Positions 1 through 61,108 of a stretch of 64,000 nucleotides of DNA are shown piece by piece. Under the pieces are notes generated by a model. The model had not been told where the DNA came from, did not search any database, and saw only the letters and a program-made list of their open reading frames with translations. Source of the DNA: Acidobacteriota bacterium (lineage in GTDB: Bacteria; Acidobacteriota; Vicinamibacteria; Vicinamibacterales; CAVVIG01); NCBI GenBank assembly GCA_003222395.1, contig QHWB01000040.1:573-64572 (forward strand), in the 5' to 3' direction. The translations under genes and the position numbers were made by a program. Position 1 is the first letter of the stretch. Each line of letters begins with the position of its first letter.

Positions 1-305
1 GACGACGTTACGCAGGCCGGCGTATCAATCCGGCTCATCGCTTCTCCACAGGCTCGATGACGGCTCTTCATTCGGTCGCGCATCTGGCGGCCAATCGCTT
101 CGCGCTCCACCGTAACAGTTCTTCACCATCACTCGTTCGCAATCTGATCTGACTTCGCAGGACGAAGTCGGACCAACCGGCTGCGCCTTCGGACGCCGCG
201 TCGCTGGAGGTGTGTGCCAAGAGAGGAGTCGATGACTGCAATCGATGTCGCGTCGGTTTCGGGGGTGTGTGCAACGGGAATGCAGATTCATGCTTGGAGG
301 AGATC

Positions 306-3300
306 ATGAGTAGTTCGAAACTTTTGACGTGTCGCCGTCCACGATCGGCGAGACGTTGGGCGCTCGCTTTGACGATCGCGATGGTGATGCCGGGCGTAGG
401 CGGTCAGCTGTTCGTGCCGACGACGGTCCATGCACAGACGGCCCCGACCGGATCCGGGTTCACGATCAACGCGGAAGATCTGCGGTTCATCTACGACCAG
501 ATCCTCGTCGCGCAGGATCACGCCGCCGGCGGAACGCTGCTCGGGCCTGGCCCCAACCAGGTTCACGATCCGCAGCTCCCGCGCGGTCTGCGAACCGTTG
601 ACGGGTCGTTCAACAACCTTGTACCAATCCCCGATCAGCACCTGTTCGGCGCGTCCGATCAGGTCTTCCCGCGTCGGACCACGCCGGCGTTCCGCGCCGC
701 CGAGGCCGGGACGTCTTACGCGCAAACGTCGGGAGATGTCATCGACTCGCAGCCGCGCATCGCGACCAACCTGATCGTCGATCAGTCGGCAGCCAACCCC
801 GCGGCCGTCGCGGCGGCCACGAACCCGTGCGGCTCGGGCGGCTTCGTGTGCTCGACGCCGACCAGCCTCGCGGCGGTTACCGACCCTGATTCCGGCGCGC
901 TGTTCATCCCGAACATCACGCCCGACTTCGGGCTCTCTGCGCCGTTCAATCTGATGTTCACGTTCTTCGGCCAGTTCTTCGATCACGGCCTCGACCTCGT
1001 GAACAAGGGCGGCAACGGCAACGTGATCATGCCGCTGCAACCTGACGATCCGCTGTTCATCCCGGGCAGCCCGGCCAACTTCATGGTGATGACCCGCGCA
1101 ACGATGCTGCCGGGTCCGGACGGCATCGTGGGAACGGCCGACGACATTCACGACAGCATCAATCAGACGACGCCGTGGGTCGATCAGAACCAGACCTACA
1201 CCTCACATCCGGCCCATCAGGTGTTCCTGCGCCAGTACGTGATGGTTGGCGGAAAGCCGATGCAGGACGGCAAAGTGCTCGACGGCGGATTCTGCTCGCC
1301 GCGCGGCACCGGCATCCCCGGCGATCAGATCTGCAACATCGGCAACTGGGCCGAGGTCAAGGCCCAGGCGTCGACCAAGCTCGGAATCCGGCTCCTCGAC
1401 CGGGACGTGTTCGATGTGCCACTGGTCCTCACCGATCCGTACGGGCACTTCAAGCCGGGCCCCCACGGATTCCCGCAGCTGGTGATCGGACCCGCAGCCA
1501 CGCCGACGCTCCGCGAGGGCGACCCGACGGCGAATGGCGGGCGCGGCGTCAACTCGACCGACGCGCTGCACACCAATCATCAGTTCCTCAATGACATCGC
1601 GCACAACGCCGTGCCGGCCCCGGGTCTCGCGCCAGACGGCGACGCGACGATCTGCGACTTCCGCACCTGCGTCCAGCCGGCCGGCACGTACGACGACGAG
1701 CTGCTCAACCTGCACATGGTCACGGGCGATGGGCGTGGCAACGAAAACATCGCGCTGACGATGGTGCACAACCTTTTCCACGCGGAGCACAACCGACTGC
1801 GCGACCAAATCGATCAACTGATCAACACGCTGTTGACGCCGGCAGAGATTGCGGCGTGGCACGCGGTGCATTCAGGCTCGGGCTGGGACTACGGCGAGCG
1901 GCTCTTCCAGGCAGCGCGCCTCGTCACCGAGATGGAATACCAGCACCTCGTGTTCGAGGAGTACGCGCGCACGATCCAGCCGCTCATCAATCCGTTCTTG
2001 GGCGGCATTACCTCGATCAACGGCGCGATCGCGGCCGAGTTCGCACACACCGTGTATCGCCTCGGTCACTCGATGCTGCCTGAGGTCCTGGGACGCATCA
2101 ACGTCGACGGAACGACCAACGACATCCGTTTGTTGAACGCGTTCCTCGCCCCTCAAAAGTACAACGACGGAGGGCCCGCCGGACCCCTGCCCGCCGCCGC
2201 GGCGGCCGGGAGCCTCATTCGCGGCCTGTCGCGACAGATCGGCAACGAGCTCGATGAGTTCGTGACGTCCTCGGTGCGCAACACGCTGGTCGGTCTGCCC
2301 CTCGACCTGCCGGCGATCAATATCGCCCGCAGCCGCAGCGAAGGGATTCCGCGGCTGAACGAGGTGCGTAGCCAGCTGTTCGCCGCGACGCAAGATGCGG
2401 CCCTTCTGCCCTACGCGAACTGGTTCGAGTTCGGACTCGGCTTGAAGCACTTCGAGTCGCTGACGAACTTCATCGCGGCGTACGGCACGCATCCGAACAT
2501 CACGGCGGCAACGACGGTCGCAGCAAAGCGGGCTGCGGCGCAGCTGCTGATTGACGCGGGCGACGCGATCTTGTTCGCTCCTGCGGCGACCAGCGGTCTC
2601 AACAATGTCGATTTCTGGCCCGGCGGTATGGCCGAGAAGCAGTCCGTCTTCGGCGGTCTGCTCGGGACGACGTTCAACTACATCTTCGAGACGCAGTTGG
2701 AGTTCCTGCAGAACGGCGACCGCTTCTACTACCTGCAGCGTCTGGACGGCGTCAACCTGGTTCAACAACTCGAGGGCAACTCGTTCGCCGAGTTGGCCAG
2801 GCGCAACACGACTGTCGGCGGAACGATGGACATCATCTTCAAGACGGCGGATTTCAATTTCGATGCGGCGACCTTGACTGGAACCGCTCCCGTCCTCGTG
2901 GATCCGCTCGATCCGAACAGCGCCAGGATTCTGACGCTGGTCGACGGGACGAAGTTGTTCTTCGATCCGCTGCACGCCGGCAAGAACATCGTCTTCAACG
3001 GCGGTCCCGGCGTCGACCGGTTCCGGTCCGATGTCGGCGACGACTCGATCTACGGCAACGGCGGCAACGACCGGTTGTCGGGCGGCGAAGGCAACGACAC
3101 GATCCTCGGAGGCGACGGCGACGACCTCCTCTTCGGAGACAACGGCGACGACGTCCTGAAAGGCGGCCCCGGCAATGACGCCATGCAGTCCGGGCCCGGG
3201 TTCGGCGCAGACCTCCTCATCGGCGGCGACGGGAACGACTTCATGGTCGGCAGCGACGACGGAAATGAGTTCTTCGCTGGCCCGGGGAACGACTTCGTCG

Positions 3301-5405
3301 TGGATGGCAGTCAGAGGGCCGAGACGATCGTCGGTGGAACCGGCGACGACTGGATCGACGCCGGCGATGGACATGACGGCGGCATTTTCGGGGACGAAGC
3401 AAACGTCTTCGACTTGCTCGCCGGCCTAGACCCGCTCGGCGGCGATGACGTCCTGGATGGCGGTCCTGGACAGGACAACCACTTCAGCCATGGCGGCGAC
3501 GACATCATGCTGATGTCGGAGGGCTCGAACAAGTTCTTCGGCGATTACGGCTTCGACTGGATCACCCTGCGAGGCTGGACGCAACCGGAGTTCATCGAGC
3601 TCAGCCTGCTGGCACTGCCGAATGTTCCGGTGAACTTCAACGACCTCCGCAACAAGTACCGCTTCGTCGACGGCGCATCCGGCTGGGACCTCAACGATCA
3701 CATCGGGGGCTCGAACGAGGTGCTGTGCGAGCCGCCGGGCGAAATCGCCGAGTGTCTCGTCGTCGGCATGGAGCTGACAACGGCAGGCGCGGCCAAGATC
3801 ACCGGCCTCACCGCACTGATGGGACCGACCGGGTTCAACCAGGACTTGAATTCCCCTGCCATCCCGGGCGTCAAAGGCGTGGGGTTCATGGGCGGCGACA
3901 TCCTGTTGGGCGGTCGCGGCAGCGACGTGCTGGAAGGCAAGCTCGGTGATGACCTGATTGATGGTGATTTGTGGTTGGACGTGAAGCTCCGGGCGGTCTA
4001 CAACAACGGGACCGTGAGGGAGGTCAACGGCCCTCGGGATCTCGTACTGGATGTCCTCTCGGATCCGCAGCTGCTCAACCCCGGGAACATCACGATCGTC
4101 AAGCGCATCATCACGCCGCCGGCGGTTCCGGCGGACTGCGGCGCCGCGGTGCCGCTCAACTGCGACACGGCCGTGTACAACTTCCCCCGGGCGGATTTCG
4201 ACATCACCCCCAACGCGAACGGCTCGGTGACGGTCACGCACGTTCCTGCCCTGGCGAGAGACATCCCGTTCGCCGAGGGCACCGACACGCTGCGGAACAT
4301 CGAGCAACTGCAGTTCACCGATATGACCATCCCCACGCCGGTCTTCGTCGCCACGGCGATCGTCCCGAACGTCGTCGGGTTGACCGACGCGGCGGCGGCG
4401 GACGCAATCACGGTTGTGGGCCTGCTGGTCGGTGACGTTGCCGGCGTCGAAACCCTGGCCTTCCCGGTGGGCACCGTCCTCGACCAGTCCCCGGCCGCCG
4501 GCACGAGGCTGACGCTTGGGGGCCGCGTGAACCTGCAGGTCGCGATTGCACCGCGCGGGGTGGTGCCTAGCGTCATCGGACTCACGCAGGCGGTCGCGAC
4601 GGCGTCGATCACGGGCGCCGGCCTGGTGGTCGGCACTGTGACGACTCAGAGCAGTGCGATCTTCCCGGCTGGAACCGTGATCACCCAGGATCCGGTCGCC
4701 GGTAAGAAGGTGCCGCTCGGAAGCGCCGTCAACCTGGTCGTATCGACGGGCCCGCCGCCGACGATCGCGGCGACGGTCACGCGCAACTCGAGCACGCAGG
4801 CGACAACGATCTCCAGTCCGTTGATCGCGGCGGCGGCGAACACGTTGCTGGTGGCGTTCGTGTCGACGGACGCGCCGGATCCGTGTTGCGCTCCGAACAC
4901 GGTCGTCAACAGCGTCACGAACAACAACGGCGCCATGACGTGGACCAGAGCGGTACGGTCGAACGCGCAGCTCGGGACCGCGGAAGTCTGGTGGGCGTTC
5001 ACGCCGGTTGTACGTTCGGGCATGAACGTGACGGCGAGGTTGAACAATTCTGTCGCAGCGTCACTGACCGTGATGGCGTTCACCAACGCGGCATCGTCTC
5101 TCGTCGGCGCGGCTGCCGTGGCAGCCAACGCCGCGAGCGGTGCGCCGTCGGCAACGCTGATCACCACCCGCGCCGACTCGTATGTGATTGGGGTGGGGAC
5201 TGACTGGGATGCGCCGCGCGTGATGACGCCGGCGGCCGGTCAGACGATCGTGAATCAGTTCACTCCGACCGTGGGCGATACGTACTGGGTGCAGCGGACC
5301 AATCCGGTGCCGGCAGCCGGTACGAGCGTCACTATCAGCGACACCTACGGCGCGACGATGCCGGATCGCTGGAACCTGGCGCTGATCGAAATCAGAAAGC
5401 CGTAG
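306..5405 (+). CDS. Secreted multidomain haem peroxidase (peroxidase-cyclooxygenase superfamily) fused to RTX Ca-binding repeats, two PASTA-like domains and an uncharacterised C-terminal beta-rich domain (1699 aa)
   Basis: ORF 210..5405. GGAGG at 294-298 precedes ATG 306, giving a Sec-type signal peptide (MSSSKLLTCRRPRSARRWALALTIAMVMPGVGG...VHAQT). Peroxidase motifs: FGQFFDHGLD (distal His), GDGRGNE, EHNR, YRLGHSML (proximal His), GDRFYY. GGxGxD nonapeptide runs at ~nt 3000-3560 and 3890-3970. Two ~65-aa PASTA-like units at ~nt 4355-4755. Confidence 0.85.
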   Translation: MSSSKLLTCRRPRSARRWALALTIAMVMPGVGGQLFVPTTVHAQTAPTGSGFTINAEDLRFIYDQILVAQDHAAGGTLLGPGPNQVHDPQLPRGLRTVDGSFNNLVPIPDQHLFGASDQVFPRRTTPAFRAAEAGTSYAQTSGDVIDSQPRIATNLIVDQSAANPAAVAAATNPCGSGGFVCSTPTSLAAVTDPDSGALFIPNITPDFGLSAPFNLMFTFFGQFFDHGLDLVNKGGNGNVIMPLQPDDPLFIPGSPANFMVMTRATMLPGPDGIVGTADDIHDSINQTTPWVDQNQTYTSHPAHQVFLRQYVMVGGKPMQDGKVLDGGFCSPRGTGIPGDQICNIGNWAEVKAQASTKLGIRLLDRDVFDVPLVLTDPYGHFKPGPHGFPQLVIGPAATPTLREGDPTANGGRGVNSTDALHTNHQFLNDIAHNAVPAPGLAPDGDATICDFRTCVQPAGTYDDELLNLHMVTGDGRGNENIALTMVHNLFHAEHNRLRDQIDQLINTLLTPAEIAAWHAVHSGSGWDYGERLFQAARLVTEMEYQHLVFEEYARTIQPLINPFLGGITSINGAIAAEFAHTVYRLGHSMLPEVLGRINVDGTTNDIRLLNAFLAPQKYNDGGPAGPLPAAAAAGSLIRGLSRQIGNELDEFVTSSVRNTLVGLPLDLPAINIARSRSEGIPRLNEVRSQLFAATQDAALLPYANWFEFGLGLKHFESLTNFIAAYGTHPNITAATTVAAKRAAAQLLIDAGDAILFAPAATSGLNNVDFWPGGMAEKQSVFGGLLGTTFNYIFETQLEFLQNGDRFYYLQRLDGVNLVQQLEGNSFAELARRNTTVGGTMDIIFKTADFNFDAATLTGTAPVLVDPLDPNSARILTLVDGTKLFFDPLHAGKNIVFNGGPGVDRFRSDVGDDSIYGNGGNDRLSGGEGNDTILGGDGDDLLFGDNGDDVLKGGPGNDAMQSGPGFGADLLIGGDGNDFMVGSDDGNEFFAGPGNDFVVDGSQRAETIVGGTGDDWIDAGDGHDGGIFGDEANVFDLLAGLDPLGGDDVLDGGPGQDNHFSHGGDDIMLMSEGSNKFFGDYGFDWITLRGWTQPEFIELSLLALPNVPVNFNDLRNKYRFVDGASGWDLNDHIGGSNEVLCEPPGEIAECLVVGMELTTAGAAKITGLTALMGPTGFNQDLNSPAIPGVKGVGFMGGDILLGGRGSDVLEGKLGDDLIDGDLWLDVKLRAVYNNGTVREVNGPRDLVLDVLSDPQLLNPGNITIVKRIITPPAVPADCGAAVPLNCDTAVYNFPRADFDITPNANGSVTVTHVPALARDIPFAEGTDTLRNIEQLQFTDMTIPTPVFVATAIVPNVVGLTDAAAADAITVVGLLVGDVAGVETLAFPVGTVLDQSPAAGTRLTLGGRVNLQVAIAPRGVVPSVIGLTQAVATASITGAGLVVGTVTTQSSAIFPAGTVITQDPVAGKKVPLGSAVNLVVSTGPPPTIAATVTRNSSTQATTISSPLIAAAANTLLVAFVSTDAPDPCCAPNTVVNSVTNNNGAMTWTRAVRSNAQLGTAEVWWAFTPVVRSGMNVTARLNNSVAASLTVMAFTNAASSLVGAAAVAANAASGAPSATLITTRADSYVIGVGTDWDAPRVMTPAAGQTIVNQFTPTVGDTYWVQRTNPVPAAGTSVTISDTYGATMPDRWNLALIEIRKP

Positions 5406-6197: not shown

Positions 6198-6836
6198 ATG
6201 CACGCTGTGAATCTTCGATCGATTCTGGCGCCGGTCGTCGGCGCCGCGATTTGCTTCCTCGCGGCCCAGCGGCCGGGCGCGGCGCTGCGCGAGACGCCGC
6301 TCGAGCACTTCAGCGCGCGAGCCGTCAGCATCGCCGACAACCAGCCCGAGGCACGCGTCGACATCCTCGTCAACCGCTGGTCGACCGACGATGAATGGAC
6401 GAGAGCACGCACGGCGCTCGCCGAAGGCGGGCCGGCCGGGCTGCTCGACACGCTTCACCACCTCCGGCAGCGCGTCGGCGTGGTGCTGATGCCCGGCGTC
6501 GGCGCATCGGGCGCCCGCGCGCGTCTGCGCTTACCGCGGAACCTGGTCTTCGCGCGCGAGATCCGCGCGAAGGAGGGCCGGCGGGTGATCCTCGTCGCCG
6601 ATCAGCACCTCGGCCTCGGCGAATCGCGCCGCGAGGCGCGGATCGATCGCGACGAGTTCAACCTGCTCGACGTCCGCTTCGGTCCCGATGGCACCGGCGT
6701 CGGCAAGCTGACGTCTGACACGAACATCAGGTACGACAAGGAAACGAAGATGATCGAGATGGAGGATTACGGCAAGCGGCCGGCGCGGCTGGTCGACGTC
6801 AGAGTGGAAAAGTCTGACGCAGCAACTACGAAGTAA
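6198..6836 (+). CDS. Hypothetical secreted protein (212 aa), no recognisable domain
   Basis: ORF 6189..6836. AGAGG at 6186-6190 precedes ATG 6198. N-terminal hydrophobic signal-like segment (LRSILAPVVGAAICFLAAQRPGAA). High GC3 coding-like composition. It follows the LuxR stop directly. Confidence 0.55.
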   Translation: MHAVNLRSILAPVVGAAICFLAAQRPGAALRETPLEHFSARAVSIADNQPEARVDILVNRWSTDDEWTRARTALAEGGPAGLLDTLHHLRQRVGVVLMPGVGASGARARLRLPRNLVFAREIRAKEGRRVILVADQHLGLGESRREARIDRDEFNLLDVRFGPDGTGVGKLTSDTNIRYDKETKMIEMEDYGKRPARLVDVRVEKSDAATTK

Positions 6837-8028: not shown

Positions 8029-9918
8029 TTATTCCCCGCCCGCGGATCCCGCGCTCATCCGGACGCTCGTCTTCTTCGCCACCTCGAAGCCTTCCTGCGC
8101 CAGCACGTCGTCGGTGATGCTGCGGGCGTCGATGGGAAGGCCGTTGTAGTGCAGCACGCTGCGCAGCTTCATCTGCCGTGCGGGCGAGAGCTCGAGCTTC
8201 ATCAGCTGGAGCAGCTGCGCGTCGCGATTCTGTTCGATCACGTAGAGACGATCGTGCGCGTCGATGAACGCCGCCAGATCGTCGGTGAACGGATAGGCGC
8301 GCAGGCGGAAGTAGGACGTTTCGACGTTCGTCTCCTCGCGCAGCTGATCGCGGCTCTCCTCGATCGCATAGTGCGACGTGCCGTAGCCGATGAACCCGAT
8401 CTTCGCCTTCGGATTCTTCTCGGCGACGGGCCGCGGCACGAGCGTCCGCGCCGTCTCGAACTTGCGCGCGAGCCGATCCATGTTGTCCACGTAGTCGTCC
8501 GGCCGCTCGCTGTACTGCCCCTTCGCGTTGTGGCCGGATCCGCGCGCGAAGTACGCCGGAAGGCCGTCGCCGGGAATCGTGCGATACGGGATCCCGTCGC
8601 CGTCGACGTCGGTGTAGCGGCCGAACGATCCGAGCCGCTTCAACACCTCCTCGGTGAGAAGCTTGCCGCGGTTGATCGGTCTGTCGGGGTACTTGAAGGC
8701 GTCCGACATCCAGTTGTTCATGCCGAGGTCGAGATCCATCATCACGAACACGGGCGTCTGCAGCTGTTCGGCGAGATCGAACGCGTCCATCGACATCGTG
8801 TAGGCTTCGTCGACCGAGCTCGGGATGATCATCACGTGCTTGGTATCGCCGTGCGACAGGAACGCCGTCGACAGCAGGTCGCCCTGCGCGGTGCGCGTCG
8901 GCAACCCGGTCGACGGTCCGACGCGCTGCACGTCGAAGATGACCGCCGGCGTTTCGGCATAGTACGCGAGCCCCGCGAACTCCGACATGAGGGAGATGCC
9001 GGGACCCGCCGTCGCCGTCATCGCGCGCGCGCCGGCCCAGCTCGCGCCGACCACCATGCCGAGCGACGCGATCTCGTCTTCCGCCTGCACGATCGCGAAC
9101 GTCGCCTTCCCCGTCTCTCTGTCGACGCGGTACTTCTTCATGTACGAGATGAGCGACTCGCACAGCGACGAAGACGGCGTGATCGGATACCACGCGACGA
9201 CGGTGACGCCGGCCATCATGCAGCCGATCGCGGCCGCCGAGTTCCCCTCGATGAGAATCTTCCCCGCCGTCTCGTTCATCGCCTCGAGATAATAGGGATC
9301 CTGCTTGGTGAAATTCGCGGCGGCGTAGTCCCACCCGGCCTTGAGCGCGCCCGCGTTCAGCGTGACCGCCTTCGCCTTGCGACCGAGCTGCTTGTTGAGC
9401 GCCTTCTCCATCAGCGCCATGTCGATGCCGAGCAGCTTCGCGAGGATGCCGTCGTAAATCATGTTGCGGACGAGGCGTCGCAGCTTCGCGTCCGGACACA
9501 CCGGCGCGACGAGCTTGTCGAACGGAACCGGATAGAACGTGAGGTCGGTGCGAAGCGCATTCAGCTTCAGCGGCTCGTCGTAGACCACTGCGGCGCCAGG
9601 CTCGAGCGTGAGGACGTCTTCTTTCGCGGTTTCGGCGTTCATCGCGACCAGGAAGTCGACTTCCTTCTTGCGTCCGACGTATCCGCGCTTGCTGGCGCGG
9701 ATCGTGTACCACGTCGGCAGCCCCGCGATGTTCGACGGGAACATGTTCTTGCCCGAGACCGGGACGCCCATCAGCAGAATGGAACGCAGCAAGACGAGGT
9801 TCGCCGTCTGACTGCCCGATCCGTTGACCGTGGCGACCTGAATGCTGAAATCGTTCACGACGCGCTGTCGATTCGCGGAGGCCCGCTGCTCCTGAACCGC
9901 TATATCTGTCGGTGACAT
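8029..9918 (-). CDS. korA: 2-oxoglutarate/2-oxoacid:ferredoxin oxidoreductase alpha subunit, 629 aa
   Basis: ORF 8029..9924. ATG 9918 (MSPTDIAV) has AAGGA upstream. N-terminal gamma-like domain FSIQVATVNGSGSQTANLVL, and a pyruvate-ferredoxin oxidoreductase core (AWYPITPSS, GPGISLMSE). Confidence 0.9.
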   Translation of the reverse strand: MSPTDIAVQEQRASANRQRVVNDFSIQVATVNGSGSQTANLVLLRSILLMGVPVSGKNMFPSNIAGLPTWYTIRASKRGYVGRKKEVDFLVAMNAETAKEDVLTLEPGAAVVYDEPLKLNALRTDLTFYPVPFDKLVAPVCPDAKLRRLVRNMIYDGILAKLLGIDMALMEKALNKQLGRKAKAVTLNAGALKAGWDYAAANFTKQDPYYLEAMNETAGKILIEGNSAAAIGCMMAGVTVVAWYPITPSSSLCESLISYMKKYRVDRETGKATFAIVQAEDEIASLGMVVGASWAGARAMTATAGPGISLMSEFAGLAYYAETPAVIFDVQRVGPSTGLPTRTAQGDLLSTAFLSHGDTKHVMIIPSSVDEAYTMSMDAFDLAEQLQTPVFVMMDLDLGMNNWMSDAFKYPDRPINRGKLLTEEVLKRLGSFGRYTDVDGDGIPYRTIPGDGLPAYFARGSGHNAKGQYSERPDDYVDNMDRLARKFETARTLVPRPVAEKNPKAKIGFIGYGTSHYAIEESRDQLREETNVETSYFRLRAYPFTDDLAAFIDAHDRLYVIEQNRDAQLLQLMKLELSPARQMKLRSVLHYNGLPIDARSITDDVLAQEGFEVAKKTSVRMSAGSAGGE

Positions 9919-9943
9919 TCTCAAGTCCTTACAGCGTATGTTA

Positions 9944-10813
9944 TCAAACCACCTCTTTGATCGCTTTGCCCATATCGGCAGGGCTTTTCACCACTTTGAC
10001 GCCCGCGGACGCGAGCGCGTCCATCTTTTCCGCCGCCGTGCCTGTACCGCCCGCGATGATCGCGCCGGCATGGCCCATCCGTCGCCCGGGTGGCGCGGTC
10101 TGACCGGCGATGAAGGCGACGACCGGCTTCCTGAAGTTCGACGCGATCCACGCGGCCGCTTCTTCCTCGGCGCTGCCGCCGATCTCGCCGATCATGATCA
10201 CGGCGTCGGTGTCCCTGTCGGCGGCGAACAACTTCAACGCGTCGATGTGCGTCGTGCCGATCAACGGATCGCCGCCGATCCCGATGCACGTCGTCTGTCC
10301 CAATCCGACCCGCGTGAGCTGGTGGATCGCCTCGTAGGTGAGCGTGCCGCTCTTCGACACGATGCCGATGCGCCCTTCCTTGACGATGTTGTGCGGAATG
10401 ATGCCGGCCTTCGCCTTGCCCGGCGAGATGATGCCTGGACAGTTCGGACCGATGAGGCGCGTCGCCGGTTTCGTTTTGAGAAACGTCATCGCGCGCATCA
10501 TGTCGAGAACGGGGATGCCCTCGGTGATGCAGACGATGAGCGCCAGGCCGGCATCGGCGGCTTCCATGATCGCGTCGGCGGCGAACGGCGGCGGCACGAA
10601 GATGACCGACGCGTTCGCGCCGGTCTCGTCCACGGCGTCGCGCACGGTATCGAAGATGGGCCACTGCTCGTGAGTCGTGCCCCCTTTGCCGGGGGTGACG
10701 CCGCCGACGACCGTCGTGCCGTACGCCGCCGCCTGCTTCGCGTGAAACGTCCCCTCGCGACCGGTCAACCCCTGCACGAGCAAACGCGTCGATTTGTCGA
10801 TCAGAACGGACAT
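9944..10813 (-). CDS. sucD: Succinyl-CoA synthetase alpha subunit
   Basis: [24 protein letters not shown]... with the catalytic-His region [13 protein letters not shown] 10813 matches the canonical SucD N-terminus; the track ORF extends to GTG 10849. Confidence 0.95.
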
Positions 10814-17318: not shown

Positions 17319-18485
17319 TCACGCGTGCTCTTCGAGCGGAACGACCTGAACCGCCGCGTCGCGAACGGTTGTCAGGAATCGATCGATGGTCGATCCCTTC
17401 CACAGGAGCTCCCATCGCGAACGCGCGCTCTGGCCGAAGATGACGTGCGTGATCCCCTCGCGCTGCGCGAAGGCAATCAGCCCGTCGGCCGGCCGCATCG
17501 CATGCACCTTCACGACGGTTGCGCCGAGGTTTTCCGCGAGCTTGATGTTCTGCTGCAGCGCGTCGGAATCGTCGGGTTTGATGCGTCCGGGCTGCTCCTG
17601 CGGCGTCTCGACGTAGACGGCGTACCACTTGGAGCCCAGGCGCCCCGCGATCCGCGCGCCGGTTCGGATGACCCGCGGGGCGATCGCGTTCGAGCTCATG
17701 CACACCATCACGCGCTCGGGAATGAGCGCCGGCTCGAGCCCTTCGCGCGCGCGATAACTGGCCGCCTTCTCGCCGACTTCGTCGGCCACGGCCCGCAGCG
17801 CGAGCTCGCGCAGCGTGCTGAGATTGCCTTTACGGAAGAAGTTGCCGAGCGCCTGTTCGACTTTCTCCGGCCTGTAGATTTTTCCCTGGCGCAGGCGGTT
17901 GCGGAGCTCCTCGACGGTGACGTCGACGTTGATCACTTCGTCCGCACGATCGAGCAAGGTGTCGGGCACCGTCTCGCGGACGCGCACGCCGGTCACGCGG
18001 GCGACGGCGTCGTTGAGCGTTTCGAGGTGCTGGATGTTGACGGCCGTCATCACGTGAATGCCCGCGTCGAGCAAATCGGCGACGTCCTCGTACCGCTTCC
18101 CGTGCCTGCTGCCGGGCACGTTCGTGTGCGCGAGCTCGTCGACGATCGCAACCTGCGGTTTTCGCGCGATGATGGCGTCGACGTCCATTTCTTCCATCGT
18201 GACGCCGCGGTACTCCACGTTGCGGCGCGGCACGACCTCGAGGTCCTTCAGCTGCGCGTCGGTATCGGCGCGGCTGTACGTTTCCACGAATCCGACGACG
18301 ACGTCGAGACCGCGGACGCGCAGCGCGTGCCCGTCGGTGAGCATCGAGTAGGTCTTGCCGACGCCCGGCGCCGCCCCGATGTAAATGCGCAGGCGCGCGC
18401 GATCCCGTTCCTTCAGCCGCGCCAGCAGCGCGTCGCTTCTCGATCCCGGAGTCTCGTCGCGGAGGCTCACTTTCTGATTGGCCAT
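17319..18485 (-). CDS. kdpD: Stand-alone N-terminal half of KdpD (KdpD-N P-loop domain + USP domain), with no TM or kinase part
   Basis: 388 aa. RLRIYIGAAPGVGKTYSML (Walker A as in KdpD-N), VDELAHTN, NIQHLESL-like NIQHLETLND, then a USP-like block RVMVCMSSNAIAPRVIRTGARIAG...WYAVYVE. It ends without hydrophobic helices. Lies directly after kdpC (19-nt overlap). Confidence 0.85.
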   Translation of the reverse strand: MANQKVSLRDETPGSRSDALLARLKERDRARLRIYIGAAPGVGKTYSMLTDGHALRVRGLDVVVGFVETYSRADTDAQLKDLEVVPRRNVEYRGVTMEEMDVDAIIARKPQVAIVDELAHTNVPGSRHGKRYEDVADLLDAGIHVMTAVNIQHLETLNDAVARVTGVRVRETVPDTLLDRADEVINVDVTVEELRNRLRQGKIYRPEKVEQALGNFFRKGNLSTLRELALRAVADEVGEKAASYRAREGLEPALIPERVMVCMSSNAIAPRVIRTGARIAGRLGSKWYAVYVETPQEQPGRIKPDDSDALQQNIKLAENLGATVVKVHAMRPADGLIAFAQREGITHVIFGQSARSRWELLWKGSTIDRFLTTVRDAAVQVVPLEEHA

Positions 18486-19097: not shown

Positions 19098-21161
19098 CTA
19101 CGCGAGGTGGAGCGCGGTAATCACCACGTCGATGATCTTGATGCCGATGAAGGGCACGATGACCCCTCCGGCGCCGTAGATCAGCAGATTCCGCCGGAGC
19201 AGCGCCTCGGCGGTCATCGCGCGGTACGCGACGCCGTGCAGCGCCAGCGGAACGAGCGCGACGATGATCAGGGCATTGAAGATCACGGCCGACAGAATCG
19301 CCGACTCGGGCGTCTTCAACCCCATGACGTTCAACGTCATCAGCACCGGGAACGTCGCTGAGAACATCGCCGGGATGATCGCGAAGTACTTCGCGACGTC
19401 GTTGGCGATCGAGAACGTCGTCAGCGCGCCGCGCGTCATGAGCAGCTGCTTCCCGATCTCGACGATGTCGATCAGCTTGGTGGGGCTCGAATCGAGGTCC
19501 ACCATGTTGCCGGCCTCTCTCGCCGCCTGCGTGCCGCTGTTCATCGCGACGCCGACATCCGCCTGAGCGAGCGCCGGCGCGTCGTTCGTGCCGTCGCCGG
19601 TCATCGCGACCAGCCTGCCGTCCTGCTGCTCGCGGCGAATCAGCCGCATCTTGTCCTCGGGCGTCGCTTCCGCCATGAAATCGTCGACGCCGGCCTCGGC
19701 CGCAATCGATGCGGCGGTCAACGGGTTGTCGCCGGTGATCATCACCGTCCGGATGCCCATCGCGCGCAGGTCGTTGAAGCGCTCGCGGATGCCGCCCTTC
19801 ACGATGTCCTTGAGGTGGACGACGCCGAGCGGCCGCGTGCGCTCCGCCACGACGAGCGGCGTGCCGCCAGAGCGCGAGATCCGCTCGACGATCGCCTGCA
19901 GGTTCACCGGCATGGCGCCGCCGTTGGCGGCGACGAACCGGCCGATGGCGTCCGCCGCGCCTTTGCGCACCTGGCGGCCGTTGAGATCGACGCCGGACAT
20001 GCGCGTCTGCGCCGTGAACGGCACGAACACGGCGCGCTTGTCGGCGAGCTCGCGACCGCGGATGCCGTATCTCTCCTTGGCGAGGACAACGATCGAGCGC
20101 CCCTCGGGCGTTTCGTCGGCGAGCGACGACAGCTGCGCGGCATCGGCGAGCTCGCGCTCATTGACGCCGTCGAGCGCCACGAATTCGGCTGCCTGGCGGT
20201 TGCCGAGGGTGATCGTTCCGGTCTTGTCGAGGAGCAGGGTGTGCACGTCGCCCGCAGCTTCCACCGCGCGCCCCGACGTCGCCAGCACGTTGCGCTGCAC
20301 GAGCCGGTCCATGCCGGCGATGCCGATCGCCGACAACAGCCCGCCAATCGTCGTCGGAATCAGGCACACGAGCAGCGCGACGAGCACGAACACCGACTGC
20401 GGCGCGCCCGAGTACATCGCGAACGGCTGCAGCGTCACGACCGCGAGCAGAAAGATGATCGTGAGCCCCGCCAGCAGGATGTTGAGAGCGATCTCGTTCG
20501 GCGTTTTCTGACGCTCGGCGCCCTCGACCAGCGCGATCATGCGGTCGAGGAACGCGTGGCCGGGATCCGAGGTCACGCGGACCTTGATCCAGTCCGACAG
20601 CACGCGCGTCCCGCCCGTCACCGCCGATCGATCGCCGCCCGACTCGCGAATCACCGGGGCCGATTCGCCGGTAATCGCCGATTCGTCGACCGACGCGACG
20701 CCTTCGATGATTTCGCCGTCGGCGGGAATGAACTCGCCGGCGCCGACGAGAACCACATCGTCCTTCCTCAGCGATGTCGCAGGCACTTCTTCATATGGCG
20801 TCCGATTCGAGCCGGACCCGACAGATGGGCCGATGAGTCGCTTCGCGATGCTCTCCGTGCGCGCCTTGCGCAGAGTGTCGGCCTGCGCCTTGCCCCGCCC
20901 TTCAGCCATCGCTTCGGCGAAGTTCGCGAACAGCACCGTGAGCCACAGCCAGAAGGTGATTTGGATTTCGAACCCCAGACCCGGCCGGCCAGCCGTCATG
21001 TCGCGCAGCAATGCGACCGTGGTGAGCGCGCTGCCGACCTCGACGACGAACACCACGGGGTTTCTGGCCATGGTCCGCGGATGCAGCTTGCCGATCACAT
21101 CGCGCGCCGCGCCGCGCACGATGCCGGGGTCCCAGATGGACAGTTGTTTTGCGTGCGACAT
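19098..21161 (-). CDS. kdpB: K+-transporting P-type ATPase subunit B
   Basis: From ATG 21161: [15 protein letters not shown]... with DKTGTIT (phosphorylation site), TGDN and [18 protein letters not shown]. Its ATG overlaps the kdpA stop (TAATG). Confidence 0.95.
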
Positions 21162-22891
21162 TAGAACACCTGCCCGTGATTCATCAGCAGATGCTCGACG
21201 ATCGGTCCGAGGCTCAGCGCCGGGAAGAACGTCAGCGCGCCGACGATGAGGACGACGCTCACGAGGAGCGAGGCGAACAGCGGCGTCGTGACCGGGAACG
21301 TTCCCGAGGACGGCGCAACGCGTTTCTTGCGCCCGAGGCTGCCGGCAATCGCGAGCGTCGGGATGATCATGAAGAAGCGGCCGACGAGCATCGCCAACCC
21401 GATCGTCGCGTTGTACCACTTCGTGTTCGCGTTCAAGCCGGCGAACGCAGAGCCGTTGTTCCCCGTTCCCGACGCGAAGGCGTAGAGGATTTCGGACAAT
21501 CCGTGCGGCCCGCGGTTGCTCAGGCTCGCCAGCCCGAATGTCGGCGAGAGCACCGAGATGCCGGTGAGCGCGAGGATGACCAGCGGGAAGACGAGCACGC
21601 CGAGCATGGCCATCTGCACGTCATAGGACTGGATCTTCTTTCCGAGGTACTCGGGCGTGCGCCCGACCATCAAACCGGCGATGAACACCGACAGGACGAT
21701 GAAAACGAGGATGCCGTACATGCCGGCGCCGACGCCGCCGAAGATGACTTCCCCGAGCACGATGTTGACGAGCGGCACCATGCCGCCGAGCGGCGTGAAC
21801 GAGTCGTGCCAGCTGTTGACGGCGCCGCAGCTCGCGTCGGTCGTCACCGTGGCGAACAGCGCTGAATTCGCCAGGCCGAATCGCGTCTCCTTGCCTTCCA
21901 TGTTGCCGCCCGGCGCGAGCGCCGTCGTCGTTTGATCGGCGCCGGCGGCGGCGAGGATCGGATTCCCGCGAGCTTCCGACCAGTAGACCGTCGTCACGCC
22001 GGCGAGGAACAGGAACGCCATCGCGCCCCAGACGGCCCACCCGTGCGCGCGCGATCCGGTCATGTCGCCGAGCGTATAGGTGAGGCCGGCCGAGATCGCC
22101 AGGATGGCGAACATCTCGACGAAGTTCGACAGCGGCGTCGGGTTCTCGAAGGGATGCGCGCTGTTCGCGTTGAAGAAGCCGCCGCCGTTGGTGCCCCACT
22201 CCTTGATGATTTCCTGCGAGGCGACGGGCCCCTGCGCGATCACCTGCTCCTTCGAATCGATCGGCGTCACCGTGTCGTACGGCCGCAGGTTCTGCACGAC
22301 GCCCTGCGATACGAGCAGCAGCGTGCCGGCGACGCAGAACGGCAGCAGCACCCACAGCGTGCAGCGCACGAGGTCGACCCAGAAGTTGCCGATCGAGTCC
22401 CGTTCCTTCTGCGCGATGCCGCGAATGAACGCGATGGCGAGCGCGATGCCGACGGCGGCCGACGCGAAGTTGTGGTACGCGAGGCCCGCCATCTGCGTCA
22501 GGTAGCTCATCGTCGATTCGCCGCTGTACGCCTGCCAGTTGGTGTTCGTCGTGAACGACGCCGCGGTGTTGAACGCGAGGTCTGGCGTAACGGCGCCGAA
22601 CTTCTGCGGATTGACCGGCAGCCACTGCTGCACGCGCTGCATGACGTAGAGCACGAGCATCGACACGCCGCTGAACAGCAGCATCGCGACCGCGTACTCC
22701 GTCCAGTGCATGTCGCGCGTCTCGTCGACGCCGGTCGCCCTGTAGATCGACCGCTCGACGGGACGGAGCACCGGGTCGAGCCACGTGCGCTCGCGAGCGA
22801 ACACGCGCGTCATGAACCGCCCGATGAGCGGCGTGACCGCGAGGATCGCGAGCAGGTACACCAGAATCTGCAGCCAGCCATTCGCTGTCAT
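21161..22891 (-). CDS. kdpA: K+-transporting ATPase subunit A
   Basis: From ATG 22891: [24 protein letters not shown]... 576 aa, polytopic. KdpA selectivity-filter-like repeats ([45 protein letters not shown]). Confidence 0.95.
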
Positions 22892-22980
22892 CAGAACCTT
22901 TCCGGCTTCAGCAGCGCGTACGTGAGATACACGAGCAGTCCGGCGCTCACGACGAGGCCGACGATGGAGTCGATCGTCAT
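22891..22980 (-). CDS. kdpF: K+-transporting ATPase subunit F (29 aa)
   Basis: MTIDSIVGLVVSAGLLVYLTYALLKPERF has the typical KdpF length and a LLxPERF C-terminus. Its TGA overlaps the kdpA ATG (TGATG). It corresponds only to the last 29 codons of track ORF 22891..23361. Confidence 0.85.
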   Translation of the reverse strand: MTIDSIVGLVVSAGLLVYLTYALLKPERF

Positions 22981-23069
22981 CGATCGCCTCCGAGCCGGGC
23001 GCACGCGTGCACGTACGCAATCGCGATCGCAAAGAACGTGACGGTGATGAGAACGAAGAGCGCGTCCAT
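22977..23069 (-). CDS. Unannotated 30-codon single-TM micro-ORF translationally coupled to kdpF
   Basis: Hand translation of the minus strand gives MDALFVLITVTFFAIAIAYVHACARLGGDR followed by a stop. ATG at 23069 lies 3 nt after the porin stop. Its TGA overlaps the kdpF ATG (ATGA at 22977-22980). It is below the ORF-track size cut-off. Confidence 0.5.
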   Translation of the reverse strand: MDALFVLITVTFFAIAIAYVHACARLGGDR

Positions 23070-25322: not shown

Positions 25323-25326
<4 letters not shown>

Positions 25327-26849
25327 GCTGTCTGCTCCGCGGACGCCGTGGGCCGGCTCTCCGCCGGAACGACGATGGAGAACTGCGCGCCCCCGCCGGC
25401 GCAGTTCTCGGCCCAGATGCGGCCCTGCTCGGCGATCAACATGCCGCGCGCGATCGCCAGACCCATGCCGGTGCCCGCCACACGCCGCGCTGCGCCGGCG
25501 CCGCGATAGAACCGATCGAACAGGTGAGGCAGATCGCCGGCCCCGATGCCCGGGCCATGATCGCGCACGGTCATCGTCAGACCGTCCGATGCCGCGGTCA
25601 AGCGCACCTCGATGGCCGACCCTCCGCTCGTGTATTGCGCCGCGTTCTCGAGCACGTGCGCGAGCGCCGCCGCGGTAAGCCGCGGATCCACGCGGACCAG
25701 CAGGTCGGACTCGGACACGACCTCGATCGGACGATCCCGGATCGTCTGCTCCACCTGCTCGCGTGCCGCCTCGAAGATCTCCGACGGATGCACCCACTGC
25801 CGCTCGGCGGCGACCGCGCCCGCATCGATGCGGGCCATGTCGAGCACGTTCTGAAACAGGCGGTGCAGCCGCTCGACTTCGACGAGGATCACGTCGCTCT
25901 GATCGCGCCGCTCGGAGTCCGCGAGCCACGACGCCTGAAGATTGCTCGCCGCGACGCGAATGGCGGTCAGCGGCGTGCGGAGGTCGTGCGCCAGCGATGC
26001 GAGGAGCGCGGACTTGAGCTCCTCGTTGCGTCGCGCAATCTCGGCCGATTTCCGTTCCTCGAGAAATTGCGTCCGCTCGATGGCGATGGCCGAGACGCCG
26101 GCGATCGCATCGAGCGCGCCCGGCTCGATCGCACGGCCGGCGGCCGCCAGTAACCCGACGGGTTTCGTTCCAAGCCGCAGCGGAACCACGTGCACCGTGC
26201 GGCCGTCGACCCGCGCCGTACGATGGCCGGCGTAGGTCCGCGCGCGCGCATCGAATTCGAGCGCACGATCCGCGGCGCGGAACGCCTCCGACAGCTGCGT
26301 CGGATCGAGCGTCACGGAAAGGGTGCCGGCGTCGAACACGTCCCAGTCGCTGCCGCGAGGCAGACAGATGGCCGCAAACGCGAGATCGAACCGCCGGGAA
26401 ATGAACAGGGCAAGCTGCGGGATCGCGTCGCGGCTGTCGGTGGTCAGCAGGATGTCGCGGCTCAGATCGAAGAGCCGGGCCAGCTCGTCGTGCCGCGCCG
26501 TCGCTTCGCGCTCGCGATCGCGGACCGCGGCTGAAAGGTTGCTCGCGATCACGCTGACCGCGAGGAACGCGAACAACGCAGCCCAGTTCTGCGGATCCGC
26601 GATGGTGAAGGTGCCGAACGGCGGCATGAAGAAATAGTTCAGGCAAAGATCGGCGACGCACGAGGCGGCGATTGCGGCCCACAGCGTCGACGCCGCAGCG
26701 GTCACCAGCACGATCAGCAGATAACTGAGGGCGGCGGTCGTGGGGTTGGTGAGATGCAGCCCGACCCGAAAGGCGGCCGTCACCGCGACGATGGCCGCCA
26801 GCGCAAGAGCGAGGATGAGCGCGTCGCGCCGTGCGAAGGATTGACTCAT
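25323..26849 (-). CDS. kdpD: C-terminal half of KdpD: membrane (DUF4118-like) + GAF-like + HisKA + HATPase sensor kinase
   Basis: 508 aa. It starts directly with 3-4 TM helices (ALILALALAAIVAVTAAF..., LSYLLIVLVTAAAS..., NYFFMPPFGTF as in the KdpD TM block), then the H-box LASLAHDLRTPLTAI, and N/G boxes (ENAAQYT, DHGPGIG, GTGMGLAIA). Confidence 0.88.
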
Positions 26850-28692: not shown

Positions 28693-28699
28693 GACACCC

Positions 28700-28880
28700 T
28701 TCCACAGCCGGCGGGGTTAGCTGGCGGGCTCGAGGTTGGAAGGTCCTCTATTCACCGTCGCCCTTCAGGCGAAAGTGCAATGCGCCCCTGAGGCGGCTCG
28801 ACGCCTCGTTGGTTCCCCCGCGCGCCCAGGCGTGGCGTGGGCGCTTAGGCCATTCTCCTGCGATCGTAGCGCGCAACAGG
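28700..28880 (-). promoter_or_regulatory. c-di-AMP riboswitch (ydaO/kimA class) in the kimA 5' leader
   Basis: The minus strand reads ...CGCGCUACGAUC-[hairpin GCGCCCA..UGGGCGC]-GCGGGGGAACCAA ... GACGGUGAAUAG ... CCUCGAGCCCGCCAGCUAACCCCGCCGGC, ending 15 nt before the SD. From memory, these match the conserved ydaO segments GCU.AAUC, GAGCGGGGGACCCA, GGUGAAUCC and ACCCGUCAGCUAACCUCGUAAGC. Confidence 0.7.
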
Positions 28881-43572: not shown

Positions 43573-44427
43573 GTGATCCCCGTCAGCCTGGGAGAGATTT
43601 CCATCGGCGGCGGAAGCCCGCTCGTCCTGATCGCGGGTCCGTGCGTCATCGAGAGCGAGCAGCACGCGACCGAGCTGGCCGGCCGCCTCGTCGAAATCGC
43701 CCGCCGCGCGCGGATGCCGTTCATCTTCAAGGCGTCGTACGACAAAGCCAACCGCACGTCGGGAACATCGTTTCGCGGGCCGGGCCTCGACGAGGGATTG
43801 CGCGTGCTCGCGTCGATCAAATCGCGTCATCGCGTGCCGATTCTCACCGACGTTCACGAGAGCTCGCAGGCGAGCGCGGCCGCCGATGTCGCCGACGTGC
43901 TGCAGATTCCCGCGTTCCTCTCGCGCCAAACCGATCTCATCGTCGCCGCGGCGAAGACGGGGCGTGTCGTCAACATCAAGAAGGGCCCGTTTCTCGCGCC
44001 TGATGACGTCAGGCACGCGGTCGCAAAGGCGGTCGACGCCGGCAACCGACGCGTCATCGTCACCGAGCGCGGCACCAGCTTCGGGTACCACGATCTCGTC
44101 GTCGACATGCGGGCGTTTCCGATGATGCGTGCGCTGGGCGTGCCGATCGTGTTCGACGTCACGCACAGCCTGCAGCTGCCCGGCGGCGGCGATGGCGTGA
44201 CGGCGGGCCTGGCCGAGTACATCGAGCCGCTGGCGTCGGCCGGGGTCGCTGCGGGCGTCGACGGCGTGTTCCTCGAGGTGCACGAGGATCCGTCGCGGGC
44301 GAAGAGCGACGCGCAGAACGCGCTGCGGCTCGACAAGCTCGAAGCGCTCCTCGAACGGCTGGCCGACATCGACAGGATCGTCAAAAGATGTGAGGCGCCA
44401 CGCGGAGAGATGAAGATCCGTGGCTGA
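43573..44427 (+). CDS. kdsA: 3-deoxy-8-phosphooctulonate (Kdo8P) synthase
   Basis: GTG 43573. LIAGPCVIES, FKASYDKANRTS, IPAFLSRQTDL, DVTHSLQLPGG. Confidence 0.95.
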   Translation: MIPVSLGEISIGGGSPLVLIAGPCVIESEQHATELAGRLVEIARRARMPFIFKASYDKANRTSGTSFRGPGLDEGLRVLASIKSRHRVPILTDVHESSQASAAADVADVLQIPAFLSRQTDLIVAAAKTGRVVNIKKGPFLAPDDVRHAVAKAVDAGNRRVIVTERGTSFGYHDLVVDMRAFPMMRALGVPIVFDVTHSLQLPGGGDGVTAGLAEYIEPLASAGVAAGVDGVFLEVHEDPSRAKSDAQNALRLDKLEALLERLADIDRIVKRCEAPRGEMKIRG

Positions 44428-61069: not shown

Positions 61070-61108
61070 GTTGCTACTGAGCCGTATCGGGGTATCGCCC
61101 CACGACCT

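Follow-up and report, generated by a model that had tools for sequence, protein, structure and literature searches.

By which route is a large haem peroxidase exported if it carries an N-terminal signal peptide, calcium-binding repeats-in-toxin (RTX) motifs and C-terminal PASTA domains, and what holds it in place thereafter? The question is raised by a gene at the beginning of a 64,000-nucleotide (nt) stretch of contig QHWB01000040.1 (positions 573 to 64,572, forward strand; assembly GCA_003222395.1, Acidobacteriota bacterium, Vicinamibacterales), which was analysed as a whole and is called the window below. An open reading frame (ORF) extends from 210 to 5405 on the plus strand; with ATG 306 taken as start, it yields a product of 1699 amino acids (aa), the stop codon being included in the end position. 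Domain borders are listed in Table 1. With a probability of about one half, we consider this product to be a Sec-exported long peroxicin of the MopA/PehA type, likely an oxidase anchored to the cell envelope or to a matrix by its C-terminal modules. A protein identical to it (P0001) was found on 9 soil-metagenome contigs and the identical gene in at least 20 soil metagenome runs.

Peroxidase core and its relatives

The Pfam profile An_peroxidase (PF03098) recognizes the protein with E-value of 8e-50 and 170 bits against a cut-off of 25 bits, and peroxidases 8s6c and 6erc from the PDB align with it at E 5e-26 and 1e-19. To the residue level, the alignment with these two structures and with myeloperoxidase assigns the distal GQFFDH motif as Gln223, Asp226 (haem ester) and His227 (distal histidine). 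The RGNE motif supplies Arg477 and the second haem-ester residue, Glu480, and it lacks the methionine typical of myeloperoxidase. Proximal His588 and its partner Asn672 align to the respective residues of myeloperoxidase and lactoperoxidase. None of these seven catalytic or haem-linking residues varies in alignment A3, which covers homologs of Acidobacteria type as well as of proteobacteria and in which many invariant columns are found from D58 onward and continue to F1337. Since this set is both aligned and invariant, the enzyme looks catalytically competent, with haem predicted to be bound covalently.

The peroxidase domain is interrupted by an insert with the PERCAL motif, the consensus of which is G-x-D-G-x-x-[GN]-[TN]-x-D-D (PMC3396595). 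Long peroxicins are defined as peroxidases with PERCAL insertion followed by hemolysin-type repeats, and the protein has both, i.e. one exact PERCAL and RTX nonapeptides. By regular expression, 8-10 nonapeptides of the form GGxGxDxUx were counted within aa 917-1060, and the whole RTX region is composed of 17% Asp and 23% Gly; an extra repeat is located at aa 1202-1210, in the post-RTX core. Pfam HemolysinCabind (PF00353) matches the whole protein at E 1e-21 and the respective sub-segment, in 6 stretches, at E 5e-26. The RTX block of CyaA in the PDB matches the same region at E 6e-28.

A word-index search retrieved more than 4000 matches to this protein, the best 120 of which are full-length or nearly so, and at least 488 homologous loci were counted in a scan with one genome per species. 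The core, aa ~50-1342, is collinear and 62-72% identical to proteins from metagenome-assembled genomes (MAGs) of Acidobacteriota and "Deltaproteobacteria". The top homolog named by NCBI comes from Acidobacteria (77%); others are those of Vicinamibacterales (64-68%) and of a subdivision-6 (gp6) Acidobacteria MAG (64%). One "delta proteobacterium" MAG homolog reaches 72%; its gene (L010 9890..14756) is broken into ORFs of 947 and 719 aa by a frameshift or an assembly error.

More distant homologs, 40-46% identical over the core, occur in Pseudomonas, Nitrosomonas, Polaromonas, Variovorax, Bosea, Leclercia and Flavobacteriaceae, and likewise in Actinomycetota (Nocardioides, Kineosporia, Terrabacter). 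The same identity was observed across query residues ~41-1342 in more than 40 loci of Pseudomonas, Nitrosomonas, Variovorax, Bosea and others. Four proteins of ~2900 aa (P0108, P0114, P0118 and P0120) are 42-45% identical to the query, and two of them, P0114 and P0118, are "peroxidase family proteins" of Metapseudomonas resinovorans. Homology with proteobacterial relatives stops at aa ~1342.

These proteobacterial homologs are known as "long peroxicins" (PMC4420034). Their MopA type has been implicated in Mn(II) oxidation in Aurantimonas and Erythrobacter (PMC6247904); the link is genetic for MopA of Pseudomonas putida GB-1 and for three mop genes of P. resinovorans, two of which have consecutive locus tags (PMC9765421), and biochemical for MopA-hp of Erythrobacter (PMC6247904). 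PepA/PehA of P. putida KT2440 (PP_2561) falls within the same group; it is likewise a giant haem peroxidase with PERCAL and RTX, extracellular and associated with the cell surface, where it has been detected (PMC3396595, PMC9518985). The first-pass annotation had recognized the kinship with peroxicins and had missed these closest characterized relatives, MopA and PehA, that is, Mn-oxidizing or extracellular peroxidases.

We compared the protein with the MopA type using proteobacterial homologs, the experimentally studied MopA sequences not being among those aligned. In the MopA type, represented by proteins of Aurantimonas manganoxydans, Erythrobacter SD-21, P. putida GB-1 (PputGB1_3353) and P. 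resinovorans (Mop7013, Mop7014, Mop5806), a peroxidase with PERCAL is followed by RTX, as it is here. The type belongs to family 5 within the peroxidase-cyclooxygenase superfamily; its catalytic residues are all shared with our protein. Its members need Ca2+ or are stimulated by it, and RTX and PERCAL motifs are present in our protein as well. Even adjacent paralogs occur on both sides, since mop7013 and mop7014 are consecutive in P. resinovorans and three copies stand in tandem here (see below).

Several features set the two apart. Our protein has one peroxidase domain and MopA-type relatives have two. The former has an N-terminal signal peptide and conserved Cys pairs of disulfide type, the latter a C-terminal signal for the type I secretion system (T1SS) and no Cys at all. 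The core is followed by two PASTA domains and a beta-sandwich in the former case and by further RTX blocks in the latter. The host is also different, an Acidobacteria-like bacterium with outer membrane (diderm), and the neighbours are an atypical LuxR regulator and a 212-aa secreted partner, with no T1SS genes found. Analogous differences apply to PehA, a 373-kDa protein with two catalytic domains and neither PASTA nor the C-terminal beta domain, which is exported by a T1SS whose genes, pehBCD, flank its own (PMC9518985).

Few bacterial proteins are candidates for Mn oxidases; peroxidases of MopA type are among them and, being giant T1SS substrates, are hard to study. The branch described here shows the same 1300-aa core in a form adapted to Sec export: it appears to contain disulfides, and it has only one catalytic domain and anchoring modules that can be exchanged. 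Soil Acidobacteria, Actinobacteria and Myxococcota harbour this branch in abundance; it offers a model enzyme that is smaller and possibly easier to handle, and it hints at the part of the cell envelope where such oxidants arise.

Export route and C-terminal modules

The signal peptide is tripartite and consists of n-region RRPRSARR, hydrophobic core WALALTIAMVMPG and c-region TTVHA, with small residues at -3 and -1 and with glutamine directly after the cleavage site. It was assigned by inspection and by comparison with homologs, not by a dedicated predictor; the A-Q junction and the signal pattern are kept across homologs. A twin-arginine (Tat) signal was ruled out, since homologs do not keep the RR pair (having TCRG, TCRD or TCRP) and F-L-K is missing, as was a lipoprotein signal, because there is no lipobox. 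A closely similar signal peptide (MSMSKRLTGRRPPSAKWW...VGAQTA) is carried by a 206-aa ORF (L009 9325..9945) just upstream of a Vicinamibacterales homolog.

Further, termini were compared in ORFs extracted from 31 loci. Proteobacterial and Flavobacteriaceae homologs begin with MA(S/N)F.KSDLEFILQQI, which corresponds to query residue ~50, and have no hydrophobic leader. Their C-termini, ...GQDLLN...ITAATF...DFILA[TS], align to the very end of known T1SS substrates (PueAB). On the contrary, a signal peptide stands at the N-terminus of homologs of Acidobacteria, Rokubacteria, Chloroflexota, Actinomycetota and Myxococcota, which lack a tail of T1SS type. The 1699-aa protein itself ends in a predicted folded beta-sandwich instead of the DFILA[TS] tail, i.e. 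it lacks the mark of T1SS export. No T1SS genes were found in ~15 kb upstream (source contigs), in ~10 kb downstream or among scanned large ORFs of the window, small ORFs having been scanned only partly.

Cysteines follow the same division. Each of the four ~2900-aa proteobacterial proteins contains zero Cys, whereas the 1699-aa protein contains 13, arranged as six close pairs and a single residue. With strict RTX proteins it shares neither the missing Cys nor the C-terminal signal. Pairs C175/C182, C330/C343 and C1278/C1286 are conserved within the signal-peptide branch, and conservation of C175/C182 is confined to it. Such pairs are expected once a formerly unfolded T1SS passenger folds in the oxidizing periplasm or exterior. 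Since signal peptide, conserved Cys pairs and different C-termini coincide in the Acidobacteria/Actinobacteria/Myxococcota branch, the switch of export route from T1SS to Sec is real. The earlier proposal that a Sec signal stands in for that of a T1SS is thus borne out, and the contrast is strengthened by the relatives without any Cys.

Behind the core, two PASTA domains are recognized by Pfam (PF03793) with E 5e-19 for the whole protein and, when aa 1346-1485 are searched alone, with E 5.8e-22 in two stretches and 78 bits against a cut-off of 23.2 bits. The NCBIfam model PknB_PASTA_kin aligns with aa 1351-1500, and PknB/Stk1 PASTA structures 3py9, 3m9g and 2kui match at E 3e-4 to 9e-4. Tandem PASTA domains are known from PknB/PrkC/StkP kinases and from penicillin-binding proteins (PBPs) of PBP2x type; the two units found here score well above the Pfam cut-off and align to arrays of PknB type. 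In contrast to those proteins, PASTA domains lie here between an enzyme and a terminal module, their copy number varies among orthologs and the host is diderm; neither a transpeptidase nor a kinase domain was detected in the protein by Pfam and NCBIfam. With the PASTA pair alone as query, all proteins retrieved were short or fragmentary, partly combined with dockerin, EF-hand or Ig domains and in a few cases labelled as kinases; they pointed to no particular PASTA subfamily.

The top 120 homolog clusters were scanned with hidden Markov models, some derived from the PASTA units of the query itself and others from aligned Cdom sequences (Cdom being the C-terminal beta domain). PASTA, in 0-4 copies, is present in 96 of the 120 and Cdom in 53. 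Three PASTA with Cdom is the most frequent combination (33 clusters); three PASTA without Cdom (24) mostly come with Laminin_G_3, and one PASTA without Cdom (20) mostly with Big_7, both according to Pfam. One PASTA with Cdom was found in 8 clusters, the present arrangement of two PASTA with Cdom in 6, Cdom without PASTA in 5, two PASTA without Cdom in 4 and four PASTA with Cdom in a single one; 19 clusters have neither. The terminal module is thus interchangeable among close homologs, being Cdom, laminin G (LamG), Ig-like or a tail resembling MYXO-CTERM. The last was observed in Myxococcota homolog L018, which ends with GCGGCS, a hydrophobic stretch and RRR; this tail matches C-termini of three MYXO-CTERM-anchored families at E 3e-7 to 4e-5, and the domain model itself gives 16.4 bits, under its 20-bit cut-off. 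Such exchange suggests that the site after aa ~1345 is where each lineage puts its retention or anchoring device. PASTA in turn behaves like a stalk of variable number that is nevertheless usually kept.

For Cdom, the last 215-221 aa of the protein, Pfam, NCBIfam and PHROGs returned no match. It is a widespread mobile module: when 1.84 billion cluster representatives were searched exhaustively with HMMER, it turned up in 1398 of them at E<=1e-3 and in 978 at E<=1e-10, in 1-4 copies per protein and in N-terminal (behind a signal peptide), middle or C-terminal position. Forty Cdom proteins were examined with Pfam, no family of which covers Cdom: its companions include spacers of transthyretin/CarboxypepD_reg/SdrD_B type, Big_7, FN3, BACON_2, RHS repeats, GH16 and lysyl oxidase, with PASTA in 4 of the 40. 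In RHS/YD polymorphic toxins P0160 and P0167, Cdom is located at the N-terminus. P0131, a protein of 1673 aa, has three Cdom copies alternating with two PASTA arrays, each of several copies, and with a region in which units of ~50 aa are repeated, from which it follows that the pairing of PASTA with Cdom recurs outside peroxidases.

Alignment of Cdom from 19 peroxidase homologs reveals 18 invariant columns, including four Trp, and Cdom is the best-conserved region between paralogs (86% identity versus 77% overall). The AlphaFold2 model based on these 19 homologs is of very high confidence (predicted local distance difference test score, pLDDT, 95.4; predicted template modelling score, pTM, 0.93) and contains about 15 strands. 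Foldseek returned no solved match for this model in the PDB (best E 0.014, template modelling score, TM, 0.31). In BFVD, however, 69 predicted viral structures match it at E<=1e-3 with TM 0.6-0.8, the best ones with 0.78-0.80 at E 1e-9. They are uncharacterized tailed-phage proteins, many of them annotated as "minor tail protein" (Mycobacterium and Gordonia phages), and one is a Microbacterium phage protein annotated as glycerophosphodiester phosphodiesterase. Judged by its companion domains and modelled fold relatives, Cdom may be a domain that binds surfaces or polymers.

The domain reading of the first-pass annotation (secreted haem peroxidase with RTX, two PASTA and a C-terminal domain) therefore stands, as the Pfam profiles An_peroxidase, HemolysinCabind and PASTA all match. 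The modules then called PASTA-like are true PASTA, and the placements at nt ~4355-4755 for the pair and ~4760-5402 for the C-terminal domain were right within a few bases. The statement that this beta-rich domain of ~215 aa could not be placed also agrees with the missing curated family and the missing PDB match. As the counts above show, the architecture is not rare, and none of these proteins has been characterized. Some homologs are labelled "heme peroxidase/PASTA/hemolysin-type" by JGI, and earlier work has counted MopA homologs of Actinobacteria. We found no published account of the Sec-exported branch with its cysteine signature, of the PASTA architecture, of the Cdom family or of the gene cassette with its triplication described below. 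In short, the long peroxicin/MopA family is known, and its PASTA architecture is common in soil metagenomes with no member characterized.

Model of function and alternatives

In the model we prefer, the unfolded pre-protein would cross the inner membrane by Sec, and the signal would be cleaved after VHA (aa 43). In an oxidizing compartment containing Ca2+, the RTX beta-roll and PERCAL would take up Ca2+ and fold, and the three conserved Cys pairs would form disulfides. Haem b would be inserted and then form ester links with Asp226 and Glu480. A small donor could then be oxidized at the active site (His227, Arg477 and Gln223, with proximal His588 and Asn672); by homology this donor is most plausibly Mn(II), else other one-electron donors or H2O2. 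The C-terminal extension would have no role in secretion: the PASTA pair would serve as a stalk, possibly a glycan-binding one, and the beta-sandwich resembling phage tail proteins would fix the enzyme to a cell-envelope or matrix polymer. In other lineages, LamG or Ig modules, an apparent MYXO-CTERM anchor or persistence at the surface after T1SS export may serve the same end. Substrate, final location, anchor ligand and role of the 212-aa partner are those parts of the model that we infer; domain content, catalytic residues, homology, the contrast between export signals, the modular C-terminus and the cassette are shown by the analysis.

A functional analogy may be seen in multidomain animal peroxidases such as peroxidasin, a secreted haem peroxidase of the same superfamily fused to adhesion or binding domains; its leucine-rich repeat, Ig and von Willebrand factor C domains are unrelated to the accessory domains found here. 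It suggests that oxidant production might be confined to a matrix in our case too. If the anchor indeed binds peptidoglycan or foreign surfaces, this would represent a new way of confining reactive oxidants. PASTA domains occur here apart from PBPs and kinases, and in a diderm.

Several points weigh against this model. Mn(II) is the likeliest substrate by homology, yet the assignment is weak because MopA chemistry is unsettled, MopA-hp having had no requirement for H2O2 (PMC6247904), and because PehA is tied to H2O2 protection and not to Mn (PMC9518985); sequence identity of 40-45% does not fix the substrate. The window encodes diderm markers (proteins similar to KDO-8-P synthase, KdsD with SIS and CBS domains and LapB, a secretin, PilM and an OmpL-like porin), which implies that the host has an outer membrane, and Sec signal alone would bring the enzyme only as far as the periplasm; we found no pathway that would take it through the outer membrane. 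Retention of PASTA in most close homologs could mean a specific function, e.g. muropeptide binding. Resemblance of Cdom to phage proteins is indirect, since predicted structures are compared with predicted ones and "minor tail protein" is a loose annotation; PHROGs and tblastn against 50,697 phage genomes gave no sequence link. As for expression, a search of RNA runs detected none that holds the peroxidase gene, and three soil metatranscriptomes from the study with gene-bearing metagenomes contained no transcript, only partial matches of 20-60 nt, which argues neither for nor against expression.

One alternative, taken up from the first-pass annotation, is that the PASTA pair binds peptidoglycan or muropeptides and tethers a periplasmic enzyme to the cell's own sacculus, where its oxidants would serve wall cross-linking or protection in a peroxidasin-like manner. 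It would explain why PASTA is kept regardless of the terminal module, it agrees with two hits above the Pfam cut-off that align best to arrays of PknB type, and in a diderm Sec delivers exactly to the peptidoglycan compartment. On the other hand, an oxidant generator in the own periplasm is hazardous, PASTA arrays link Cdom copies in unrelated giant secreted proteins such as P0131 and, to our knowledge, not every PASTA domain binds muropeptides. Because the copy number of PASTA varies, some orthologs have Cdom without any PASTA and the surface-sorting-like tail of the Myxococcota homolog points beyond the outer membrane, we regard a peptidoglycan tether as plausible, yet less likely than the model above. 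Variable PASTA and swapped terminal modules fit a modular stalk with anchor at least as well as muropeptide binding.

Unlikely is an extracellular H2O2-scavenging peroxidase for "autoprotection" in the manner of PehA, whose C-terminal modules would be mere spacers or solubility elements. The complete catalytic set for formation of compound I is conserved, PehA confers a fitness gain when cells are oxidatively stressed, and H2O2 induces expression of pehBCD (PMC9518985). A mere spacer would, however, hardly keep so many invariant positions as Cdom does, including its four Trp, nor recur as a defined module in ~1400 clusters. Moreover, the Michaelis constant of PepA for H2O2 is very high, 13 mM as cited in PMC6247904.

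We also considered that PASTA and Cdom dock onto wall or glycans of other bacteria, so that the enzyme would be an antibacterial or predatory weapon releasing toxic oxidants and the 212-aa partner its inhibitor or immunity factor. This we hold to be quite improbable. The Cdom fold does resemble predicted phage minor tail proteins, which may be of receptor-binding type, it opens the RHS/YD toxins mentioned above, a small conserved gene follows directly downstream as in toxin-immunity pairs, and paralogous cassettes form tandem arrays. It is with equally low confidence that PASTA array and Cdom might be seen as a portable device for targeting bacterial surfaces, shared with RHS toxins and further secreted enzymes and used here by a "peroxidase bacteriocin". 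But characterized relatives MopA and PehA are not toxins, diffusible oxidants are hardly neutralized by a specific immunity protein, and Cdom also joins non-toxic enzymes (GH16, lysyl oxidase). Targeting domains of weapons are usually diversified, unlike Cdom with its high conservation between paralogs. Finally, large size, RTX repeats and modules of adhesion type resemble RTX adhesins, but a non-enzymatic adhesin or S-layer-like protein with peroxidase domain as dead scaffold is hardly credible given that the seven catalytic and haem-linking residues are invariant across phyla.

Neighbouring genes and other features of the window

Three paralogous cassettes stand in tandem, the last of which holds the peroxidase gene of the window; the other two were recovered from source contigs (L086 3..14484 and L087 1..14785, the same contigs as the window). 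Genes of the cassette are ordered as peroxidase, atypical LuxR regulator, secreted protein of ~196-212 aa, DUF6152 protein and secreted poly-Asp protein. Peroxidase copy A, cut by a contig end, is at least 1652 aa long, has three PASTA and is 67% identical to the present protein; copy B (P0004) has 1751 aa, two PASTA and 77% identity; copy C is the reference from the window, with 1699 aa and two PASTA. Both the conserved cassette and its triple repetition, which lie mostly upstream of the window, were missing from the first-pass annotation.

Table 1. Positions of the peroxidase gene, its domains and other features in the window.
Feature	Position	Strand	Basis or remark
3' end (37 codons and stop) of gene for secreted acidic 241-aa poly-Asp protein	2..115	+	frame 2; ends LLHRLDDGSSFGRASGGQSLRAPP before the stop, identical to the end of the 241-aa gene at L002 9085..9810
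Shine-Dalgarno-like GGAGGAG	296..302	+	3 nt before ATG 306; read from sequence
Peroxidase-RTX-PASTA-Cdom gene, 1699 aa	306..5405	+	ORF, Pfam, homologs
Signal peptide, aa 1-43, predicted cleavage between VHA and QT	306..434	+	neither Tat nor lipoprotein type
N-terminal portion of family core, aa 44-215, with Cys175/Cys182	435..950	+	alignment A3
Animal-haem-peroxidase domain, aa ~216-870	951..2915	+	Pfam PF03098, PDB alignments
PERCAL Ca-binding motif GPDGIVGTADD, aa 270-280, insert within peroxidase domain	1113..1145	+	exact consensus match
RTX beta-roll region, aa 871-1090	2916..3575	+	Pfam HemolysinCabind, PDB CyaA RTX, regular-expression count
Post-RTX core, aa 1091-1345, with Cys1278/Cys1286 and closing motif GTDTLRNIEQLQFTD	3576..4340	+	A3, homolog comparison
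PASTA1, aa 1351-1416	4356..4553	+	Pfam PF03793, NCBIfam, PDB PASTA structures
PASTA2, aa 1418-1482	4557..4751	+	best Pfam stretch aa 1419-1481, profile positions 2-64 of 64
Cdom, all-beta C-terminal module, 215 aa (aa 1485-1699)	4758..5402	+	without curated family
Atypical NarL/LuxR-family response regulator, 241 aa	5467..6192	+	Pfam Response_reg and GerE
Secreted partner, 212 aa with signal peptide	6198..6836	+	small family uncovered by Pfam/NCBIfam
KDO-8-P-synthase-like, KdsD-like and LapB-like genes, secretin, PilM	43573..47162 and 57952..62847

The same regulator gene follows every peroxidase copy, and no partner histidine kinase is encoded within the cassette. In the alignment with NarL (1a04), S, E and G stand in the places of D13, D14 and D59, respectively. 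Since both the acidic pocket and the phospho-acceptor Asp are gone, the regulator is probably independent of phosphorylation.

The 212-aa partner belongs to a family of 112 clusters, all "hypothetical" and without Pfam assignment; an NCBIfam search with it gave nothing. It is consistently a direct neighbour of these peroxidases, on their downstream side: its homologs are located downstream of homologous peroxidases in seven loci (L001-L006 and L010), directly so in L005 (twice), L006 and L010. The AlphaFold2 model of the partner (pLDDT 82) has no significant Foldseek match in the PDB, and weak hits, among them several lipocalin/FABP-like barrels (probability <=0.2), were not relied on. Together with the beta-sandwich module of ~200 aa (~1400 clusters), the partner represents the second family without curated model encoded here.

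In the locus of the PASTA-less homolog P0049, genes for a multicopper oxidase of 728 aa and for SCO1/SenC-cytochrome c follow ~3.4 kb downstream of the peroxidase, separated from it by three genes annotated without function; the locus also has a gene similar to that of the 212-aa partner in size and position. This single case is suggestive of a link to metal oxidation. Upstream in the same locus, a divergent LuxR regulator and a HisKA_3 kinase are found, and a haem-binding protein of THAP4/nitrobindin type is encoded ~3 kb away.

Secreted, probably disordered poly-Asp proteins are encoded directly upstream of each peroxidase gene in two organisms (L002 9085..9810 and 894..1550; L005 2169..2804 and 9753..10376). 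Those of L002, the organism of the window, also carry repeated ALRGPP/SLRAPP motifs. Poly-Asp proteins might bind cations (Ca2+ or Mn2+). The DUF6152 proteins (L002 8484..8888 and 361..765) have predicted mature N-terminus HHSFAAEYD, which may constitute an N-terminal histidine metal site.

The remainder of the window is taken up by housekeeping genes, such as those for 2-oxoacid:ferredoxin oxidoreductase, succinate dehydrogenase, isocitrate dehydrogenase, CTP synthase and Kdp, and neither rRNA nor tRNA gene was found in it. A cyclic di-AMP riboswitch (Rfam RF00379, 57.9 bits) at 28691..28861 on the minus strand is located directly upstream of the gene at 26854..28692, whose product is an APC-family permease and might be a K+ importer similar to KimA. 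Near the riboswitch are kdp genes for KdpA (21161..23032) and a KdpB-like P-type ATPase (19098..21419), accompanied by genes for a split KdpD (sensor with Usp, 17319..18485) and for a DUF4118-HisKA-HATPase protein (25323..26849).

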